NCBI RefSeq assembly: GCF_000010625.1
Contig: NC_010296.1
Location: 2,370,001-2,402,000, forward strand
Direction: 5' to 3'
DNA from: Microcystis aeruginosa NIES-843
GTDB lineage: Bacteria; Cyanobacteriota; Cyanobacteriia; Cyanobacteriales; Microcystaceae
Length of the DNA: 32,000 nucleotides
This document shows positions 21,964-32,000 of this stretch, piece after piece (the stretch's first letter is position 1; the number at the start of each line of letters is the position of its first letter). The notes beneath the pieces were generated by a model. The model worked only from the letters and a program-made list of their open reading frames with translations, made no database searches and was not told the DNA's origin. A program made the position numbers and the translations under genes.

Positions 21964-23211
21964 ATGACATCGATTAATGAAATCGTTCCTACCTATCCCA
22001 ATCTGAACAGTAACGATTATACCAGTTCAGCTATGAGCGAAGATAATCATTACTCTCAGAATAATGCTGGAGTATTATTTACTCGTCCCCATGAATCACA
22101 GATGACACCCCGAGAAGAAAGTCGTAGTAATCGCATCGTGCCGAGCAATGTCGCCAAGATCAAGGTGATCGGGGTCGGCGGTGGGGGCTGTAACGCCGTT
22201 AACCGCATGATCGCCAGCGGCGTGACCGGAATCGAATTTTGGGCAATTAACACCGATGCCCAGGCCCTGGCCCACTCCTCCGCCCCCCAGAGGTTACAAA
22301 TCGGGACAAAATTAACCCGCGGCCTAGGGGCGGGCGGCAATCCGGCGATCGGACAGAAAGCGGCGGAAGAGTCCAGGGATGAAATCGCCCAAGCATTGGA
22401 AGGAACCGATCTAGTCTTTATTACCGCTGGGATGGGCGGCGGCACGGGAACGGGGGCCGCTCCAATTGTGGCCGAAATTGCCAAAGAAATCGGCTGTTTG
22501 ACCGTGGGAGTTGTGACTCGTCCCTTTACCTTCGAGGGTCGTCGTCGCACTAATCAGGCCGATGAAGGGGTGGGTGGTTTACAAAGTCGGGTCGATACCC
22601 TGATTATTATCCCCAATAACCAGTTATTACAGGTAATACCCGCCGACACTCCCCTACAGGAGGCTTTTCGCGTCGCTGATGATGTGCTGCGACAAGGGGT
22701 ACAGGGGATCTCGGACATTATCACTATCCCCGGTCTGGTGAATGTGGATTTCGCCGATGTGCGGGCAGTGATGGCCGATGCGGGTTCGGCCCTAATGGGC
22801 ATCGGCATCGGTTCCGGAAAATCTCGGGCGAAGGAAGGAGCGATCGCTGCTATTTCCTCGCCGTTACTGGAATCCTCGATCGAAGGTGCGAAAGGCGTAG
22901 TCTTTAACATCACTGGTGGTCAAGATCTAACCCTACACGAAGTCAATGCCGCCGCCGAAATTATCTATGAAGTGGTGGATCCCAACGCTAATATCATCTT
23001 CGGGGCAGTAATTGACGAGAAAATGCAGGGAGAAGTCAGAATTACCGTCATTGCCACCGGTTTTTCCGGCGATTCCCCCTCTCGTCCCACCAGTAGCAAG
23101 GTGGTGATCAATGCCCCCGCACCCAGTCCGGCCCCGACTCCCGAACCACCAAAACCGGCGGGATTAGATATCCCCGAATTTCTGCAACGTCGTCGTCCTT
23201 TTGATCGCTAA
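21964..23211 (+). CDS. ftsZ: cell division GTPase FtsZ
   Basis: [13 protein letters not shown], the tubulin signature [17 protein letters not shown], and C-terminal DIPEFLQRR. Confidence 0.97.
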
Positions 23212-23217
23212 CCTCCT

Positions 23218-24018
23218 ATGACTGCCATTGCCCTCACCATCGCCGGTTCCGATAGTGGTGGCGGCGCGGGAATTCAAGCTGATTTGAAAACCTTCGCCTT
23301 CCACCGAGTTCACGGCACCAGCGCCCTTACCTGCGTTACCGCCCAAAATACCCTGGGGGTCGAGCGCGTCGAGTCCTTAAGTCCAGAAATGGTAACGGCC
23401 CAAATCGATGCCGTGGTCAGGGATTTCGGTGTGCAAGCGGTCAAGACGGGAATGCTGTTTAGCAGCGAGATTATCGAAGCAGTGGCCGAGGCGATCGAGC
23501 GCTGGCGTTTAATCAGTTTAGTGGTGGATCCGGTCATGGTTTCGCGGGTAGGAGCCAAATTAATTGATGATCGGGCTATAGATAGTCTTTTTGATAGTTT
23601 AATTCCCCTAGCTTCGATTGTTACCCCTAATCGTTACGAAGCACAGCTTTTAAGTGGCATTGAGATCAATGATTTTGAGACGATGAAAGCGGCCGCCGAA
23701 ATTATTTTCCAGAAGTCGGCCACACCCGTATTAGTGAAGGGGGGAGGCATGAAAGGCCGGCTGCGCGGGGTTGATATCTGCTTTGATGGGGAGGAATGGG
23801 AAACTTTTAAGACCAGAAGCGTCGAAACCAATAACACTCACGGGACTGGTTGTACTCTATCGGCAGCGATCGCTGCTAACCTCGCTTTGGGGGATGACCT
23901 GAAAATAGCGGTGAAAAAAGCCAAGGATTACGTTACTAACGCCCTTGAGCATTCCCTCGCTATCGGTCAAGGAACCGGTCCTGTGGGCCATTTTTACCGC
24001 TTAAAAGCCCTAAATTAG
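23218..24018 (+). CDS. thiD: hydroxymethylpyrimidine/phosphomethylpyrimidine kinase
   Basis: TIAGSDSGGGAGIQADLKTF, VKTGML, VVDPVM and NTHGTGCTLSAAIAA are canonical ThiD motifs. Confidence 0.9.
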   Translation: MTAIALTIAGSDSGGGAGIQADLKTFAFHRVHGTSALTCVTAQNTLGVERVESLSPEMVTAQIDAVVRDFGVQAVKTGMLFSSEIIEAVAEAIERWRLISLVVDPVMVSRVGAKLIDDRAIDSLFDSLIPLASIVTPNRYEAQLLSGIEINDFETMKAAAEIIFQKSATPVLVKGGGMKGRLRGVDICFDGEEWETFKTRSVETNNTHGTGCTLSAAIAANLALGDDLKIAVKKAKDYVTNALEHSLAIGQGTGPVGHFYRLKALN

Positions 24019-24039: not shown

Positions 24040-25352
24040 GTCTGAAACCCCGTCGTTCTACGACGGCTTTACTGTTAAATATGAGCATCGTTTACGAAAT
24101 ATATGCTAGTGTGAAAGGACATGGAAAAAGCCTATTCGTTTCGATTTTACCCCACACCCGAACAAGAGTCGCTATTGCGGCGCACTTTGGGCTGTGTAAG
24201 ATTGGTTTACAATAAAGCTCTCCATCTCAGAACACAAGCTTGGTACGAAAAGCAAGAAAGAGTAGGCTACGATCAAACTTCTTCAGTGTTGACCGATTGG
24301 AAAAAACAAGAAGAATTAGACTTTTTAAACGAAGTTAGCTGTGTACCTTTACAACAAGGGTTAAGACATTTACAAACAGCTTTTACTAACTTCTTTGCTG
24401 GTCGGACTAAGTATCCTAACTTTAAGAAAAAACATCAAGGAGGAAGTGCCGAATTTACCAAATCAGCCTTTAAATTTAAAGACAAACAAATCTATTTAGC
24501 CAAATGCACAGAACCTTTACCTATTCGATGGTCAAGACAAATACCAGAAGCTTGTGACCCAAGTACAGTAACAGTCAGATTACATCCTTCTGGACGTTGG
24601 CATATCTCAATTAGATTTGATGACCCAACGATTAAGCCATTACCAGTAACAGATAAAGCCATCGGAATTGACTTAGGAATTAGTAGCCTCGTGATTACCA
24701 GCGATGGCGATAAAGTGTCTAATCCCAAGCATTTTAACAAGCATTATCGGAGACTGCGAAAAGCACAAAAAAATCTTTCTAGAAAACAGAAAGGGTCAAA
24801 AAATCGGGAAAAAGCGAGAATCAAAGTAGCCAGGATTCACGCTCGAATCACCGATAACAGAAAAGACCATTTACACAAGCTAACCACTCAATTAGTTCGT
24901 GAAAACCAAACGATTGTGGTTGAGAATTTAGCTGTCAAGAATATGGTCAAAAACCCGAAATTATCTCAGGCAATATCTGATGTTAGCTGGGGAGAAATAA
25001 CCCGACAATTAGCCTATAAATGCCGTTGGTATGGGAGAAACTACATCGAAATAGATAGATGGTTTCCTAGCTCTAAAAGGTGTAGTAATTGCGGGTATAT
25101 TGCCCTTGAAAATGCCGTTAAATGTTCGAGAATGGGACTGTCCAGACTGTGGGACTCACCATGACCGAGATATTAACGCCAGTAAAAATATTTTGGCCGC
25201 AGGGCTTGCGGTGTCAGTCTGTAGAGCGACCATAAGACCAGAACAGAGTAAATCTGTTAAGGCAGGTGCGGAACCCCGCAAGGGAAAGAAGCAGAAACCC
25301 AAATCGTGAGGTTTGGGAATCGCCGTCCGTTTTACGGCGGCGAGGATGTCAA
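24040..25352 (+). mobile_element. IS200/IS605-family element of the tnpB-only (IS1341-like) type; boundaries approximate
   Basis: Subterminal hairpins at both ends: CCGTCG-TTCTA-CGACGG (24050-24066) and CGCCGTCCG-TTTTA-CGGCGGCG (25321-25342), the latter followed by GAGGATGTCAA. No tnpA (Y1) gene is present. Confidence 0.5.
24121..25309 (+). pseudogene. tnpB: TnpB (OrfB) RNA-guided nuclease gene with a 1-nt frameshift in the zinc-finger region (about 25095-25105)
   Basis: N-terminus MEKAYSFRFYPTPEQESLLRRTLGCVRLVYN. RuvC residues in IGIDLGI, VVENL and [11 protein letters not shown]. The CSNCGY...REWDCPDCG zinc finger is split between ORF 24121-25164 and ORF 25100-25309. Confidence 0.85.
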
Positions 25353-25616
25353 AGTTTATCAGTTAAGGCTATTTGAATTGCCGGTCATCACCGTCCGGCC
25401 CCGGCGGCGAGGATGTCAATTGGGTCGATTTCTCCACCAGAAAACCTTTTAGTCTTGAGATAATATTGGGTAGGGGTCTGATGGTCTCCGTATCCAATCG
25501 GTAGGTCGATGGTCAGGTGGGGACGTGAAGACCTTGTTTTGAGTCAGAGGATAGAGAAGAGTGAAGAAATTGAGTATCTTGAGTGAAGAAATGAGTCGGT
25601 TTGATGGGGTAAGTCG

Positions 25617-27021
25617 ATGAGACAATGGGATTGGAACCTAGTTTTTATCCACGGTACTGGGGTACGAGAACCTGCCTATAGCAAAACTGGGAGCATCTCA
25701 CCTTTGCAATGAGCATAAATACTTAGTGGAAAAATAGGCTTTTCGAGGGTAATTCTTGTTTTAATTCTCCATGTACGCAGTCTTTAAAAGCCTCTATTTC
25801 GTTCCAAGACACGATTAAGAGTGGCTTTTAGGCTAAGTATAATTACTTATCGCGTAAGTGAGATGCTCCCGCAAAACTTTTAGTATCATTATCCGAAAAT
25901 TGAAAGAACGCAATGAAAATTTGCGTTTTCAAAAGTGTTACTGGGGTGGTTCCCTCGGCACAACGTTAAATGCTGGGGGACTATCTATTCCAGTGTCGGA
26001 TCAAAAAAAAGCCTCAGAAACCGATTTAACTGATGAAGACTACGTTCTGGGTTTATGGGAGTTACTATATCAGGATCCACTCATCGAACTGCAAATCCTA
26101 ACCATAAGTTCCGAGGACAAAGGGGCTGTTTTTGGGGAAAAGCTAGGCGAGGATTTGGATAATCGGGTTCGAGCCTTAAATCCATCCTCTAATCTGCAAG
26201 AAATGCTCGATCAGGCTGGCATTGGCCAGTTTTTTAGTCAATCCCAATCCATTATCGTCAACGAAAGCGATTATCAAAAAGCGATCGAATCCGCCACGGA
26301 ACCATTAGGAGAATACCGCATAGCGATCGCCCGTGCGCTGGTAGCCCAGAGTGCTATTTTGGTAAGGGATAACTATGGCGAATTCGCCTTATCGGTTAAT
26401 GGGGGATTACGAGATCAAATTGTCGAGCAAATAGCGGCGGAATTAGGGGGTACGGAAAAAGGAGTTTTGTCCGGCATAAAAGAGATGATTTCTGGTACGA
26501 TCAGGCGTATTATTCAGAATAATCTCCAAAGAAAGCGAAATGGATTCACGGAAGAATATAGTGGCACTTTGGGAGATATTTTGATGTATCAAGCAAGGGG
26601 ACAAAAGCTTAGAGACTTTGTTCGCACAACCGTTGAACGTCTGGAATATCCCACCGTATTAATCGCCCATAGTTTGGGTGGTATTATTGCCGTCGATTTG
26701 CTATTAGAACAACAATTACCACAAGTGGCTTTGTTGGTGACGATCGGTTCTCAATCTCCTATTCTTTATGAACTGAATGCTTTGGTGGGGATGGAATATA
26801 ATCCCAATGCCAAGCTGCCGGATACTTTCCCCGATTGGTTAAATATTTATGATCGCAACGATTTCCTCAGTTATGTGGATGAGAAAATATTCCCTGGAAA
26901 GATAGAAGATGTGGAAATCGACAGTAAACAACCGTTCCCCGAGTCTCACGGTGCATATTGGAATAATGACAAGGTTTGGGATGCCGTTTGGCAGAAGATG
27001 GAGAAGATAGTTAATGGCTGA
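25617..27021 (+). pseudogene. alpha/beta hydrolase (Ser-Asp-His, large cap insertion) interrupted near its 5' end by a MITE
   Basis: Exon-like part 1 is 25617-25688 (MRQWDWNLVFIHGTGVREPAYSKT, containing the HG oxyanion motif). It joins in frame to 25879 onward (FSIIIRKLKE...) once the MITE plus one TSD copy is removed. Nucleophile AHSLGG. Acid NIYDRNDFLS. His PESHGAYW. Confidence 0.75.
25689..25870. mobile_element. MITE (182 bp) of the same family as 4506-4627, with 8-bp target-site duplication GCAAAACT
   Basis: IRs are GGGAGCATCTCAC (25689-25701) and GTGAGATGCTCCC (25858-25870). TSD copies lie at 25681-25688 and 25871-25878. Subterminal sequence resembles the IS ends at 28824 and 31317. Confidence 0.9.
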
Positions 27022-27832
27022 ACCATCGACAACGCAAGCTATTCTGGTCGGCATTGAAAGGTATGCCGATTCTAATGCTATTCCGGATTTGAACGGTCCG
27101 GTCAATGATGTTTATCGGTTCTGTCAATGGTTACGATATCGCAATGTGCCTCCTGAAAATATTTCGGTTTTCGCATCTCCACTCGATCGCAATACTGGAA
27201 TCGTTGACGAGATTACCAGTCTGATCAACAGTAAACCCTTAGAAGCGACCAAAGATATAGTCAATAAAGCTCTGCGCGAGGAAGCGAGAAAAAAAACAGC
27301 AAGCTTGTTTTTCTTGTTTTGGTCGGGACACGGTTGGATCGTCCCTCAAGGCGATCGTCGATTGATTTATGCCGATGCGACAATTGAGGACTTGAAGAAC
27401 CTTAATTTAACTGCCCAGCTTAATGCTATGCAGACCGATTTATATAAAAATTTACCTCAGCAGTTACTAATCTTCGATGCTTGCGCTAATTCCCAATTAT
27501 TAAAGATAACTCCACCTGACGATCTTCCCCCTATCGGTAAACATTTGCCAAGTCAACAACAAATGGTCATGCTGGCGGCTAATCCGGGAGAATATGCGAT
27601 TAATAAAGGCGACGAACAAACGGGTATATTTTCACGAGAACTATTAAATGAATTGAACTCATTAAAAGATACAGAGGTTTGGCCTCCAGATCTGGAGTCA
27701 GTTATGCAGTCCGTGCAGAAAAAGTTCATCAAACTGCGAGAAGATAAACAAACCAGGCAAACTCCTTCATATCTTTTATCCCACATTCCGCACCCTAAGT
27801 GTCACAACGTCTCAAAAGAGGAAGGGGCGTGA
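27014..27832 (+). CDS. caspase-like cysteine protease (peptidase C14 / orthocaspase-type, single domain, 272 aa)
   Basis: Catalytic dyad contexts FLFWSGHGW (His) and LLIFDACANS (Cys), followed by TGIFSRELLNEL. The start ATG overlaps the hydrolase stop by 8 nt (ATGGCTGA). Confidence 0.8.
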   Translation: MAEPSTTQAILVGIERYADSNAIPDLNGPVNDVYRFCQWLRYRNVPPENISVFASPLDRNTGIVDEITSLINSKPLEATKDIVNKALREEARKKTASLFFLFWSGHGWIVPQGDRRLIYADATIEDLKNLNLTAQLNAMQTDLYKNLPQQLLIFDACANSQLLKITPPDDLPPIGKHLPSQQQMVMLAANPGEYAINKGDEQTGIFSRELLNELNSLKDTEVWPPDLESVMQSVQKKFIKLREDKQTRQTPSYLLSHIPHPKCHNVSKEEGA

Positions 27833-28025
27833 GTCAAAATACTTATCTAGAGGAGTGAGTTGGCGGCAAGCTGCCGGCAACTAAGCCGAAAATTTCAGAG
27901 TTCCCCCGGTCATTCTCAATAAACAGTGCTTGTTGAGAATGACTAGGCAATCAGACTTAACATCTAGGGGGAGATGTTCCAGTTGCTCGCTTTGTTTTGT
28001 CACCCCTTGAAGTCAATCCATCTGG

Positions 28026-28823
28026 TCAAGATAAGAGATAATATTCCTGGCAAGGTTTGGGGAAAAATCTCAAAATGTTGCGCCTCTCATCCGTTAAGTT
28101 GCTAATCTTTTGATTGTCTTGAATACGGACGAGATGAATCCCTTGAAAGCCCTGAAATATCCAGCGTAACGTCGGTCGGTCAGTTAACTTACCCAACTGA
28201 TTTTTCAGTCCCGTCTCCTGCTGTTTTAAACTTAAACGAAGTTGTCTTTGACCAATAGTATAAACCAGCAGGCACAAGCCCATGAGCATGGCCATGACCT
28301 CGATTCTATGGGGAGATTTGAGAAAGACACTGTCAGCAAAAAAGCAGGGGTCTTTGAGAAAAGAAAATCCTCTTTCTGGAGCTTGTTGCCCCTTATATTT
28401 TTTGAGTATATCCTCACTGCTCAATCGTTTTTTCTCCAAATCGTTAGTTGCTAAAACGAATCGTCCTGCTCGTTTCTTTAGCCTCTCAATCGCTGCCAAA
28501 TTCAACTCTAATTCGGCTTGAACTTGATAGCTTTGAGAGGGTAAATCGTCTTTTGATTTGAGTTTTGACCCCTGGGACTCAGGCGGAATGAGATTGACTT
28601 TAATCTCCGTTAACTGATGAGATTTTAAGGAGTCAGATAATCCTTTGGCTATCGCCAACGCCACCGCTCTATTCTCAAATTCTCTTCGGGATAGTTGCCG
28701 GATTTTTTCTTGGGCAGAATTCTTTTCCTGCTCGATTTTTTTCTCTAATTTTTTCAAGTCTGATTCTTGTCTAGCTTGACTTTCAACTAGCAACCATCTT
28801 TGTTCTATACCCCCATAGTTAGA
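28026..28823 (-). pseudogene. IS1634-family (IS4-related) transposase, C-terminal part, separated from its N-terminal part by an IS insertion
   Basis: RFVLATNDL...YKGQQAPERGFSFLKDP...EVMAMLMGLCLLVY is a typical IS1634/IS4 C-terminus. Reading across the junction restores ...SWRETSSNYGGIEQRWLLVESQ. Confidence 0.75.
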
Positions 28824-29623
28824 GGGAGCATCTCACTTATGCAATGAGTATTAATGCTTATAGCCGTCAACAACTAGAAAATCTTCAACTTGATCACAAA
28901 GAGAAATGAGATTATAATAGTTATAGCTTACAATTCAGAATATGGCTCGATAGGAGGAATAATTCAATGTTATCAGAAAATGAAAAAAGAATTAAAGAGT
29001 TATGTCAAGAGTTAGGGCAATGTCTCTATGAGCAATCCCCAATTAAGAAATTTAATAACTTGGGAGAGATAGAGGAGACAGTCAGAGATTTAATGATTCA
29101 TTATGTCAACCCAGAAATCGGTATTTTTTTGTCAAAACAAGCACAGAAGAAACCGCCGGTCGGACGAGAAAAGTGAAAAGTATTTTGGGGGAATTACCAA
29201 TTACAGAAAAACAAGCGAAGAAGTTAGAAGTAAAGCCTCGGACTCAGATGAGTCCAATGTTAGAGAAGAACTGTTTGTTATTAAGTGGCGATGAATCCTA
29301 CGAGAAATCGGCGCAGAAAATCAAATCATTGACAGGGATTGCTGTTTCTCACAGTACCCAACAACGCCTCGTGCATCGCTATGCTTTTGAAGAATTACCG
29401 TCTAACCCAGAAGTCGAAGTGGAAGAAATGAGCATAGATGGCGGTAAGGTACGACTAAGAACTGCCAAGGGAAAAGCCTTGATTTGGCGTGATTATAAAG
29501 CAGTGAGTTTTCATCAACTGGGGGTAGCGGCCTTTTTTCAAGATAACTCGGCTTTATTAGATTTGGTTAATTCTCAAGTTTTGGCTGAACCTTTAATTTG
29601 TTTAGGAGATGGACATGATGGTA

Positions 29624-30853
29624 AGCTTTTACGCATTTAAGTTACATTGACAGCATTACCCTTATTTTTAAGTTTTCTACTCCATTTAATAATCAATCCC
29701 CCTTCATTTAAAAGCTGATTGACTACTTTTTCCAGTTCTTCTTTATTTTCAAATTCTCGATTAGCTATGTACTCTTTAGCGGAATGCCACACTAATTCTA
29801 TTAGGTTGTAATCTGGACTATAAGCTGGTAAAAACTCTAGCCTAATATTGGGCAACTCTTTTTCCACCTGCTCAATAACATCTTTCTTTTTGTGATAACT
29901 AGCATTGTCTAATATGATGATAATTTTCGGTCCTTTTTCTCGAAAATCTTCGGGCAGATTTCCCAAGTTTATCCATTCTTGACGAATCTCTTCATGAAGT
30001 TTCTTTAATTGTTCATGGAAAGTTTCTGAATTTCCTTTTTTGATCATAAAACAGACTCGTTTTTTGTCATTATATCTTAAGGCTCCCATCACATTCACCC
30101 TTCCTCTTTTTCTTTGTCCATTCACTTTTTTTCGCTTTCCTTTTTTTGTCCAAGCTCTCCTTCTTATTACTCTCAAACTAAATCCACACTCATGAGGGGC
30201 TGTGTGGCGAACCTGCGTCGCCACCTTGAAAGCCCCGTCCCAAAACCATACCTGGATTGACTCTGGCTTTTCTTTAGCCAACCTTAAATATTCATCTAAT
30301 TTTTCTTTAAATGCTTTTCTTAATTTCTTGTCTTGCTTATCTTCTAGACTATATTTCGCCCAGATATACACATACTTTTTTCTTCTCAATATTCTTCTCA
30401 CTTGCGAGCCACTCAGTTTAATTCTTGTTTCCTTTTCTAGATGCTCTGCTAATCTTGCCGCTGTCCATCTCCCGAATTCATATCCAAATTCCTTCGGGTC
30501 TTCATCAACTATTTTTAATAGTAAATTAATATATTCCTCTGTGGCTTTTTTATGATTTCCATTTTTTCTCCCATCTTCTAGACTTTCTAAATTGTTAGGA
30601 TCACCGTGAACACACCAAGGGGCGACCGTTTTGAGTGAACAGCCAATAAAGTCAGCTATTTCTCGTTGAGTTTTTCCGTCGTTTAGCAAGAGAAACATTA
30701 AAATTCTTTCCCTAACCTCTGCTCTTTCTTCTTCTTTAAGAGCTTTTTGTAAGTTTTTCTTTTCTTCTAAGTCTAGGAAATCTTTTGCTGGCATAAGTAG
30801 GATTTTTCTAAAATTACTATTTCTATTTTAGGTGGTTTAAGTGCGTTTTAGCT
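29624..30853 (-). mobile_element. IS630-family insertion sequence (1230 bp) flanked by TA target duplication
   Basis: Imperfect ~24-bp IRs AGCTTTTACGCATTTAAGTTAC and (rc) AGCTAAAACGCACTTAAACCAC. TA at 29622-29623 and 30854-30855. Confidence 0.8.
29637..30794 (-). CDS. IS630-family DDE transposase (385 aa) carrying a 15-aa in-frame insertion in the first catalytic motif
   Basis: N-terminal HTH (TQREIADFIGCSLKTV). ...ILDNASYHK... and LPAYSPDYNLIELVW are typical of IS630/Tc1. WFWD-[GAFKVATQVRHTAPH]-ECGFSL interrupts the usual D-E-x-G-F motif. Confidence 0.85.
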   Translation of the reverse strand: MPAKDFLDLEEKKNLQKALKEEERAEVRERILMFLLLNDGKTQREIADFIGCSLKTVAPWCVHGDPNNLESLEDGRKNGNHKKATEEYINLLLKIVDEDPKEFGYEFGRWTAARLAEHLEKETRIKLSGSQVRRILRRKKYVYIWAKYSLEDKQDKKLRKAFKEKLDEYLRLAKEKPESIQVWFWDGAFKVATQVRHTAPHECGFSLRVIRRRAWTKKGKRKKVNGQRKRGRVNVMGALRYNDKKRVCFMIKKGNSETFHEQLKKLHEEIRQEWINLGNLPEDFREKGPKIIIILDNASYHKKKDVIEQVEKELPNIRLEFLPAYSPDYNLIELVWHSAKEYIANREFENKEELEKVVNQLLNEGGLIIKWSRKLKNKGNAVNVT

Positions 30854-31317
30854 TATCTGGAATTTATTTGGTCAGATAGGAGAGAAACAGGAAAGAATTG
30901 AAATATTGGATTGGTATCATTTAATCGAAAACCTCTATAAAGTTGGCGGGTCATTCCAGCGGATTGATGAGGTAAAATGTTTTCTATGGAAGGGGGAAGT
31001 GGATGCTGCTATCTCCTGTTTTGAGGGATGGTCAGAGCCGCAAGTGGAGAATTTTATTATTTATTTGAACAAGCATAAACATCGAATTGTCAATTATGGT
31101 TATTTGCAGGCAGAGGGCATTTCGATTGGCTCTGGCTCTGTTGAATCAAAAATTAAACAAATTGCTCATCGTCTTAAAATTACTGGTGCAAGTTGGGAAT
31201 CTGGTAATGTACCGCAAGTCCTTCGTCATCGCTGTGCTTATCTAAATGGTTGCCTTTTTTAACTTTTTTATTGATCTCATTAAGCATTTCTACTTATTGC
31301 AAAGGTGAGATGCTCCC

Positions 31318-32000
31318 TAGTTAGAGCTTGTTTCCCGCCAGGAATAACCCGGTATTTCTGAATCGGTTAACTCTTTTTCTGAGATGCTATCGACTAACTC
31401 TTGAGCCTCTTTAATGCTTAATGGTACTCGAGACAACCAACGCATTTCTTTCATTAGTTTTAAATTCTCTTTGCTATAGAGGGCGCTATCGCCGACTATT
31501 AAACTGTCAAAGTCAACTTGTTTTTTAAATTCTCGGGCGATTTGACCAAAAACCGCTTTGTCCGCTTCATTTCCGTCCCCTACTTTCAGGAATAAAGGTA
31601 CATCTCCATCCCCACTTACGATTAAGTCAATCATAAATTGTTTTAAGTCAGGTCTTCGGTCGCGGGAGTATCCGTAGGTAATTTTTATTGGCTGTTGTCT
31701 GGTTTCAATTTCTTCTCCCACTGCTCCTGATTTCAGGATTTCTACTGTTGGGTATTCCTTTTTATATTCTCCTTCTACTGATAGAGAAGTCGAATCTAAA
31801 TGGGAGTTCTCGGTTGCTACACCAAATTTTTTCACGGCGGCTAAACTGATGAGTAGGAAAATGACCGAAACATTAAGTTGATAAAGTTTGTCCATTACTC
31901 GACCAATTTTATCATCATTCAAGTGCTTGGGTTCGATGCCCTCTCCCAGCAGATGTTCGGTTGCTTTATCTTCAAAAAATTGAGGAAATAAATACAAGGC
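31318..32000 (-). pseudogene. IS1634-family transposase, N-terminal/middle part (open to window end)
   Basis: HLDSTSLSVEGEY...ITYGYSRDRRPDLKQFMIDL...LIVGDSALYS are hallmark IS1634 motifs. The frame remains open at 32000. Confidence 0.8.

Follow-up and report, generated by a model that had tools for sequence, protein, structure and literature searches.

Positions 25617-27832 of a 32,000-nt stretch of the Microcystis aeruginosa NIES-843 genome (contig NC_010296.1), where a gene for an alpha/beta-hydrolase overlaps a gene for a caspase-like protease, raise the question of whether the two genes form an immune module by themselves or are the remains of a larger one. The whole stretch is called the window, and all coordinates are positions in it. 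A first-pass annotation proposed a minimal two-gene system of hydrolase and stand-alone caspase that had not been characterised. Our analysis points to another answer. Very probably, what the locus retains is the 5' end, now inactive, of an M. aeruginosa conflict operon of the VMAP-type MoxR-vWA "ternary" class, in which the caspase would activate the hydrolase. This reading was drawn from the intact operons of five related contigs (L011, L001, L008, L009 and L002), from the effector-associated domain 2 (EAD2) carried by full-length caspases, and from the synteny of hydrolase and caspase in 65 of 73 loci. The copy in the window is dead: a miniature inverted-repeat transposable element (MITE) splits the hydrolase gene, and an insertion sequence (IS) element of the IS4 family takes the EAD2 off the caspase.

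Disruption of the hydrolase and caspase genes

The locus was compared with intact loci in related contigs, namely L005, L003, L004, L011 (Microcystis M131), L001 (Nodularia), L008 and L009 (both metagenomic) and L002. The features of the locus and of the elements that interrupt it are as follows (aa, amino acids; ORF, open reading frame; AF2, AlphaFold2).

25617..25688, + strand: hydrolase codons 1-24, including the oxyanion HG (His12-Gly13); the start agrees with the intact gene starts in L005 and L011
25689..25870, no strand assigned: MITE of 182 bp, with 13-bp terminal inverted repeats GGGAGCATCTCAC and an 8-bp target duplication GCAAAACT
25879..27021, + strand: hydrolase codons 25-404 and stop, from homologues, invariant residues, AF2 model, Foldseek and loop motifs
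26671-26673, 26860-26862 and 26947-26949, + strand: hydrolase catalytic codons Ser289, Asp352 and His381
Approximately residues 46-251 of the hydrolase, + strand: helical insert in the AF2 model
Residues 62-72 (nt 25990-26022) and 241-251 (nt 26527-26559, including the invariant Arg244) of the hydrolase, + strand: predicted cleavage loops
27014..27779, + strand: caspase-fold (Peptidase_C14) catalytic domain, aa 1-255, from Pfam, invariant dyad, metacaspase profile match and tblastn
27329-27331 and 27482-27484, + strand: caspase catalytic codons His106 and Cys157
27780..27832, + strand: non-homologous tail of the caspase ORF, 17 codons and stop, encoded by the inserted IS; identity to L011 ends at 27779
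27780..32000, running past the window end, - strand: IS4-family element that cuts the caspase gene (Pfam DUF4277, DDE_Tnp_1)
28026-28793 and 31317-31997, - strand: IS4-family transposase in two pieces
28824..31317, no strand assigned: 2.5-kb element nested in the IS4-family element, with MITE-type inverted repeats and 51-nt inverted repeat arms
29637-30794, - strand: IS630-type transposase gene inside the 2.5-kb element (Pfam DDE_3, HTH_33)

From its ATG at 25617 the hydrolase gene runs for 24 codons before the MITE breaks it; as it stands, the frame enters the MITE and reaches a stop after 31 codons. The terminal inverted repeats of the MITE are perfect, and the direct repeat around it occupies 25681-25688 and 25871-25878. 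After excision of 25689-25878 in silico, an ORF of 404 aa ending at 27021 was obtained, the length at which the first-pass annotation had put this Ser-Asp-His hydrolase. The empty site with a single GCAAAACT is present in the Microcystis contigs L005 and L011, and the repaired window sequence shares 99.9% identity with L005 across 2094 nt. L003 and L004 contain the identical insertion. Repeat ends of the GGGAGCATCTCAC type were matched 6 times in the window, compared with 0 expected by chance, and the same IS/MITE family occurs three times, as a 122-bp MITE at 4506-4627, as the 182-bp MITE in the hydrolase gene, and as the 2.5-kb element. Because the same repeat ends recur and bound the 122-bp and 2.5-kb elements, the insert in the hydrolase gene was assigned as a MITE of the resident IS family. 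The inverted repeats in common indicate that the 2.5-kb element is likely to be the parent family of the MITE.

The caspase ORF (27014-27832, 272 aa) and the end of the hydrolase gene share 8 nt (ATGGCTGA; start at 27014, stop codon ending at 27021), as had been read from the sequence at first pass. Pfam Peptidase_C14 (PF00656) scored 57.5 bits against a cut-off of 21.4, over residues 9-255 and model positions 4-225 of 233. His106 of the SGHG motif and Cys157 of the DAC motif are invariant among 32 diverse caspase homologues, so the intact dyad described earlier was borne out. The caspase family profile aligns with plant metacaspase-4 and trypanosome MCA2 through the catalytic His, and the generic "caspase" model of PADLOC-DB v2 (PDLC02987) matches at E=3.7e-17. 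A PDB sequence search with the full-length caspase as a single sequence gave no match, and PADLOC-DB v2, including gasdermin-protease, holds no single catalogued system with models matching both proteins.

The description of this caspase as stand-alone did not hold. Nearly all of 78 caspase homologues are 378-389 aa long with a C-terminal EAD2 (Pfam PF19956), and homologues 84-97% identical carry this domain. The window caspase is covered only to 94% by its homologues. When a full-length homologue was compared with the window by tblastn, only aa 1-255 were matched (27014-27778), and the EAD2-coding part of the gene was found nowhere in the window. The window DNA tracks L011 with 98.1% identity until nt 27779 and is IS sequence thereafter, and the final 17 codons of the ORF are IS sequence in place of a linker and EAD2 of about 130 aa. 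The window caspase is a 3'-truncated caspase-EAD2 allele, cut at nt 27779/27780 by the IS4-family element. Public data list a protein identical to this truncated one as "caspase family protein [Microcystis aeruginosa]". This entry is the product of a truncated pseudogene, which bears on the counts of "orthocaspases" in Microcystis.

The elements are nested three deep: the IS630-type transposase lies within the 2.5-kb element, which lies within the IS4-family element and splits the transposase gene of the latter. An unbroken 504-aa copy of the IS4-family transposase is located at the same caspase junction in L003. In L005 the hydrolase is intact and the caspase is IS-truncated. Because this allele has the truncation without the MITE, the IS struck the caspase gene before the MITE entered the hydrolase gene. 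Inactivation by mobile DNA, which the first-pass annotation had put down to a MITE, was confirmed for both genes, and the locus is a clean, datable case of stepwise decay of a costly immune operon through mobile DNA in Microcystis.

Intact operons and the synteny census

Kaur, Burroughs, Iyer and Aravind (eLife 2020; PMC7159879) described the VMAP ternary systems, in which a MoxR-vWA pair is joined by a third component, VMAP. Effectors in these systems sit on the vWA protein with EAD adaptors, EAD2 recruits the signalling peptidases, and caspases always have an adjoining alpha/beta-hydrolase gene (PMC7159879). In Nodularia L001, L008, L009 and L011, the gene order was hydrolase, caspase-EAD2, EAD2-VMAP-C (~540 aa), an AAA_5 MoxR-type ATPase (~360 aa) and a large protein, and the 8-nt overlap between hydrolase and caspase also occurs in all four. 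The fifth protein of L011 has a C-terminal FGE-sulfatase (FGS) domain, and its gene occupies the slot given to the vWA component by Kaur et al. The order in L002 was hydrolase, caspase-EAD2, a 368-aa protein, AAA_5, VWA_CoxE and EAD1-CHAT; the fifth protein of L011 and the VWA_CoxE protein of L002 gave no significant BLASTP match. No VMAP-C, MoxR AAA+ or vWA gene was found in the window by tblastn and ORF scan; after 27779 there is just IS sequence. A search with the L011 VMAP protein returned 82 relatives, none of them traced to the present genome, which suggests that an intact VMAP gene is no longer there.

The intact operons bear directly on the proposal that hydrolase and stand-alone caspase are an autonomous minimal toxin or defence module in which each regulates the other. 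The two genes are adjacent and overlap by 8 nt, Evans et al. needed just two proteins for cleavage in vitro (PMC12642450; see below), and the truncated 272-aa caspase allele, with its catalytic domain intact, recurs in several environmental Microcystis contigs and stands beside an intact 404-aa hydrolase in L005. However, the 272-aa form terminates in IS-derived codons at the IS junction, and the 98%-identical L011 locus runs on into VMAP, MoxR and FGS-domain genes. Apart from the truncated Microcystis allele, no complete partner caspase shorter than ~348 aa was seen among the other loci inspected; all are extended, with EAD1 or EAD2, VMAP-C or NB-ARC-TPR. Where relatives are intact, the pair either opens a VMAP/MoxR operon of five genes or has its caspase fused to a STAND protein of the NB-ARC-TPR type. 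We consider an autonomous two-gene module highly unlikely, and the wording "minimal two-gene system" was given up.

A homologue search with the hydrolase gave 625 homologues (best E=3.5e-236). For the synteny census, one genome per species was scanned, which gave 325 hydrolase relatives, and the best 80 loci were examined; caspases were detected with a hidden Markov model of the window-caspase family, and the 73 loci with at least 1 kb downstream were counted. The best 80 loci came from Cyanobacteria, Actinobacteria, Gemmatimonadota, Chloroflexota, Acidobacteriota, Verrucomicrobiota, Bacteroidota, Deinococcota and Alphaproteobacteria. In 65 of the 73, a caspase domain lies directly 3' of the hydrolase on the same strand. 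Among the 52 caspase-positive loci with at least 5 kb downstream, MoxR was found in 25, VMAP-C in 16 and an NB-ARC STAND domain in 27, and 8 had none of these. The Pfam domains recorded for the next gene were Peptidase_C14, NB-ARC, AAA_16, EAD2, VMAP-C, TPR, FGE-sulfatase and EAD1. Architectures within a single locus included caspase-VMAP-C fusions, caspase-EAD1 with EAD1-VMAP-C, and caspase-NB-ARC-TPR. The pair belongs to VMAP/MoxR and STAND immune operons, and the original assignment to conflict or cell death was upheld.

The census also decides whether a housekeeping esterase and an ordinary cyanobacterial "orthocaspase" could have become neighbours by chance, with no functional link. The hydrolase falls weakly into generic Pfam alpha/beta-hydrolase families, all below cut-off (best Abhydrolase_6, 22.1 bits against 26.3), and no model of PADLOC-DB v2 matches it, two points that speak for such an esterase; NCBIfam gave no match to it either. 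The comparison with PADLOC and Pfam that had been suggested at first pass thus succeeded for the caspase (PDLC02987, PF00656) and failed for the hydrolase. Chance is nevertheless refuted by the adjacency across many phyla, and the pairing has been published (PMC7159879). The hydrolase and caspase distance matrices correlate at r=0.96, which 0 of 999 permutations reach; this value is inflated by shared phylogeny and was not relied on. The probability of chance neighbours is close to nil.

Several other arrangements were observed in the census. No caspase domain was detectable directly downstream of the hydrolase homologue in L013, L014, L025, L028, L046, L051, L058, L078 and L090; downstream sequence is barely 1 kb in L013 and L014 and 3-10 kb in the other seven. 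Natural hydrolase-caspase fusions in high-GC loci were considered and rejected, as no stop-to-stop ORF held both domains. In several of the Nostoc loci L016, L025, L036, L038, L039, L042 and L043, a conserved ORF of about 100-140 aa (c14) lies between the hydrolase and the caspase-NB-ARC(-TPR) gene. A conserved 142-aa ORF (c2) lies directly upstream of the hydrolase in Nostoc loci, and both c2 and c14 are unannotated. In Streptomyces L071, L075, L080, L081, L084, L088 and L089, VMAP-C, MoxR and NB-ARC-like matches were located upstream of the hydrolase, at a distance of 3-8 kb and on its strand, with an opposite-strand gene (c16, ~450-490 aa) in between. The operon order in these Streptomyces loci is therefore unlike the cyanobacterial one.

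The helical insert and the predicted cleavage loops

The HG motif (12-13), the HSLGG motif (H288, Ser289), D352 and H381 are invariant among 44 hydrolase homologues, and D349 is conserved in at least 90% of them. In the AF2 model (predicted local distance difference test, pLDDT, 81.3; predicted template modelling score, pTM, 0.69), the core strands lie as expected for the fold (7-12, 40-45, 283-288, 307-313, 343-348 and 366-370). By the modelled core and by the canonical order of HG, nucleophile elbow, acid and His, the protein is assigned the alpha/beta-hydrolase fold. The nearest structures of the core in Foldseek were minimal lipases, including Bacillus subtilis LipA, with a probability of 1.00 and weak E-values (8.7e-3), and oligopeptidases were also among the matches. 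A PDB sequence search with the hydrolase profile gave nothing beyond weak matches at the nucleophile elbow. In the model, strand 40-45 and the helix preceding the nucleophile strand 283-288 are separated by an all-helical insertion of ~200 aa, close to the ~230 aa estimated at first pass.

The mechanism can be considered in light of a recently dissected representative. Evans et al. (bioRxiv 2025.11.14.688446; PMC12642450), who cite Kaur et al., studied the LcHydrolase/LcCaspase pair of Lysobacter capsici AZ78. LcCaspase cuts the LcHydrolase zymogen at Arg73|Gly and Arg117|Gly, which releases a death effector. The cleavage was reconstituted in vitro with the two proteins alone, the fragments (8.1, 4.7 and 19.8 kDa) were toxic, the R|G motifs are shared by 161 LcHydrolase homologues, and the substrate of LcHydrolase was reported as unknown (PMC12642450). 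A membrane-targeting lipase activity, the idea raised at first pass, is a conjecture for the window hydrolase.

In the window hydrolase the pLDDT falls below 50 in two segments only, residues 62-72 and 241-251, on either side of the helical insert. Arg244 is present in 189 of 189 family members; the residue before it is usually Arg or Lys, and the one after it is Gly in 115. At position 68 the same members have Arg (81), Lys (23) or Leu (63), so Arg/Lys total 104. Leu68 occurred in the sequences inspected from Nostoc and other filamentous cyanobacteria, for example the Nostoc/Anabaena loci L016-L043 and L047-L057 ("DATL|AL"), where Arg244 is still invariant. Cuts at about Lys68 and at Arg244 would yield pieces with computed masses of 7.8, 19.4 and 18.3 kDa.

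Taking the two published studies together, we propose that the VMAP/MoxR/vWA core would sense the invader and set the threshold. The caspase would be recruited through EAD2-EAD2 contact and then activated. Active caspase would cut the latent hydrolase at the exposed loops 62-72 (P1 at about Lys68) and 241-251 (P1 Arg244), and the ~176-aa helical insert would be lost through these cuts. The two end pieces, N-terminal (~7.8 kDa) and C-terminal (~18.3 kDa), would then assemble an active minimal Ser-Asp-His hydrolase, and the cell would die. That one partner licenses the other, as the first-pass annotation had supposed, is probable, and activation of the hydrolase by the caspase matches the biochemistry on a comparable pair (PMC12642450). 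The predicted cleavage sites are the one addition made here, and they apply to the large-insert branch of the hydrolases.

The roles could also be reversed, so that the hydrolase is an upstream regulator or sensor of the caspase and not its substrate. Its insert might then bind a ligand or an invader protein, and the FGS-domain protein would be the effector. Kaur et al. put effectors on the vWA protein and peptidases in the "signalling" slot (PMC7159879), and the insert of ~200 aa is well conserved and far bigger than simple auto-inhibition needs. However, in the one tested pair the caspase cleaves the hydrolase and the fragments are toxic (PMC12642450). The invariant catalytic triad indicates that enzymatic activity is under selection, and two disordered basic loops bracket the insert as they would an excisable segment. 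A regulatory hydrolase is therefore considered unlikely.

Several points weigh against the reading of the locus as a VMAP operon with a caspase-activated hydrolase. The biochemistry of cleavage and toxicity comes from the Lysobacter pair and not from VMAP-linked members. The window hydrolase family was likened to LcHydrolase by architecture and fragment sizes, and LcHydrolase is ~110 aa shorter than the window hydrolase. That the insert is the excisable inhibitory segment of a zymogen is a prediction, and the proposed sites derive from disorder and conservation only. Because Leu68 is found in the Nostoc NB-ARC-linked clade (63 of 189 members), an Arg/Lys-specific first cut is not universal; this branch may have a different P1 preference or a single cut. 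Regarding the operon, no vWA domain was detected by Pfam in the fifth gene of L011 even at E<=1, with only a DxSxS-like motif visible, and the N-terminal EAD2 of the L011 VMAP protein is sub-threshold, though recorded for close relatives.

A further possibility, which we put forward tentatively and hold to be rather doubtful as a whole, is that the VMAP- and STAND-linked hydrolases of cyanobacteria and actinobacteria are a distinct zymogen variant that excises a conserved helical domain of ~176 aa, with a caspase-site loop at either end, in place of a linker as short as 44 aa. If this is true, the excised domain might bind a ligand or act alone after release, beyond blocking the active site. 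The Nostoc clade may also have changed the P1 residue of the first cut from Arg/Lys to Leu. Independently of this variant, the L005-type allele, with its intact hydrolase and EAD2-less caspase, might persist in Microcystis populations as a sensor-free module.

Neighbouring features and comparison with published systems

The surroundings agree with the first-pass description of a tnpB element, a MITE and nested IS elements. The gene upstream of the hydrolase and its parts are listed below.

24121..25309, + strand: TnpB gene (IS605 OrfB / Cas12f-like), frameshifted in the C-terminal zinc-finger (TNB) domain
24121-25164 and 25100-25309, + strand: TnpB as two ORFs, the first with Pfam OrfB_IS605, HTH_OrfB_IS605 and Cas12f1-like_TNB, the second with the remaining TNB

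A motif, CGGCGGCGAGGATGTCAA, is repeated just downstream of TnpB (~25310-25460) and could be the right-end or omega-RNA region of the element. Directly upstream of TnpB, window 21964-24018 holds two genes which, from their translations, we take to be ftsZ (415 aa) and a ThiD-like kinase gene (266 aa). With these neighbours, the decayed locus adjoins core housekeeping genes and is not inside an obvious defence island. Elsewhere in the window, a 1862-aa ORF (5747-11335, minus strand) has Jacalin-like lectin domains (Pfam PF01419) in two stretches and encodes a giant lectin-repeat protein.

Compared with the VMAP ternary systems of Kaur et al. (2020), the intact relatives match in gene content and order: a hydrolase, a caspase that is EAD2-linked or fused to VMAP, a MoxR AAA+ ATPase and an FGS-domain effector protein. 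The phyletic pattern (cyanobacteria, actinobacteria) and the recruitment of a signalling peptidase by EAD2 are also alike. The copy in the window has the hydrolase beside the caspase. Missing from it are EAD2, VMAP, MoxR and vWA, and the MITE breaks its hydrolase gene; it is a remnant and not a working member. Kaur et al. said of the hydrolase and caspase only that they "operate together", with VMAP-linked peptidases in a "signalling" position (PMC7159879), and offered no mechanism for the hydrolase.

The Lysobacter pair of Evans et al. is alike in combining an alpha/beta-hydrolase with a caspase-like Cys protease that is attached to varied sensors, STAND among them. Judged by its sequence, the window locus appears to have the core of such a module, a caspase-like protease with an invariant dyad beside a hydrolase. 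Between the N-terminal strand and the nucleophile, LcHydrolase has a segment with a basic cleavage site at each end, and basic sites are predicted to flank such a segment here; the nearest folds are lipases and oligopeptidases in both (Foldseek here, HHpred for LcHydrolase). The end fragments are similar in size, at a predicted 7.8 and 18.3 kDa compared with 8.1 and 19.8 kDa in Lysobacter. The middle segment differs, being helical and ~176 aa here and 44 aa in Lysobacter. The P1' residue of the second site is Gly in ~61% of the window-hydrolase family, whereas the Lysobacter sites are R|G, and one clade has Leu at P1 of the first site.

Two further systems share part of this logic. In the EACC1-caspase two-gene membrane system (Kaur et al. 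2020; Evans et al. 2025), a caspase-like protease also lies 3' of the partner gene that it supposedly activates. The partner here is a 404-aa soluble hydrolase and not a small conserved EACC1 protein with a single transmembrane segment, and the NCBIfam model caspase_w_EACC1 (NF047832) gave the window caspase 49.2 bits against a cut-off of 140. The Apaf-1-like STAND-caspase logic is alike in that NB-ARC occurs in the same locus in 27 of 52 cases and that the Nostoc-type caspase is fused to, or directly before, NB-ARC and TPR. This arrangement is absent from the window and its Microcystis relatives, which use the EAD2-VMAP-MoxR route. The first-pass view that the system was not characterised could not be kept, since the pairing was described by Kaur et al. 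(PMC7159879) and a representative was dissected by Evans et al. (PMC12642450). The hydrolase-caspase pairing, its MoxR-vWA-VMAP and STAND immune context, and the logic of a protease that activates a zymogen are all already published. What the window holds is a degraded example of a type of system already known, with little weight as a discovery.

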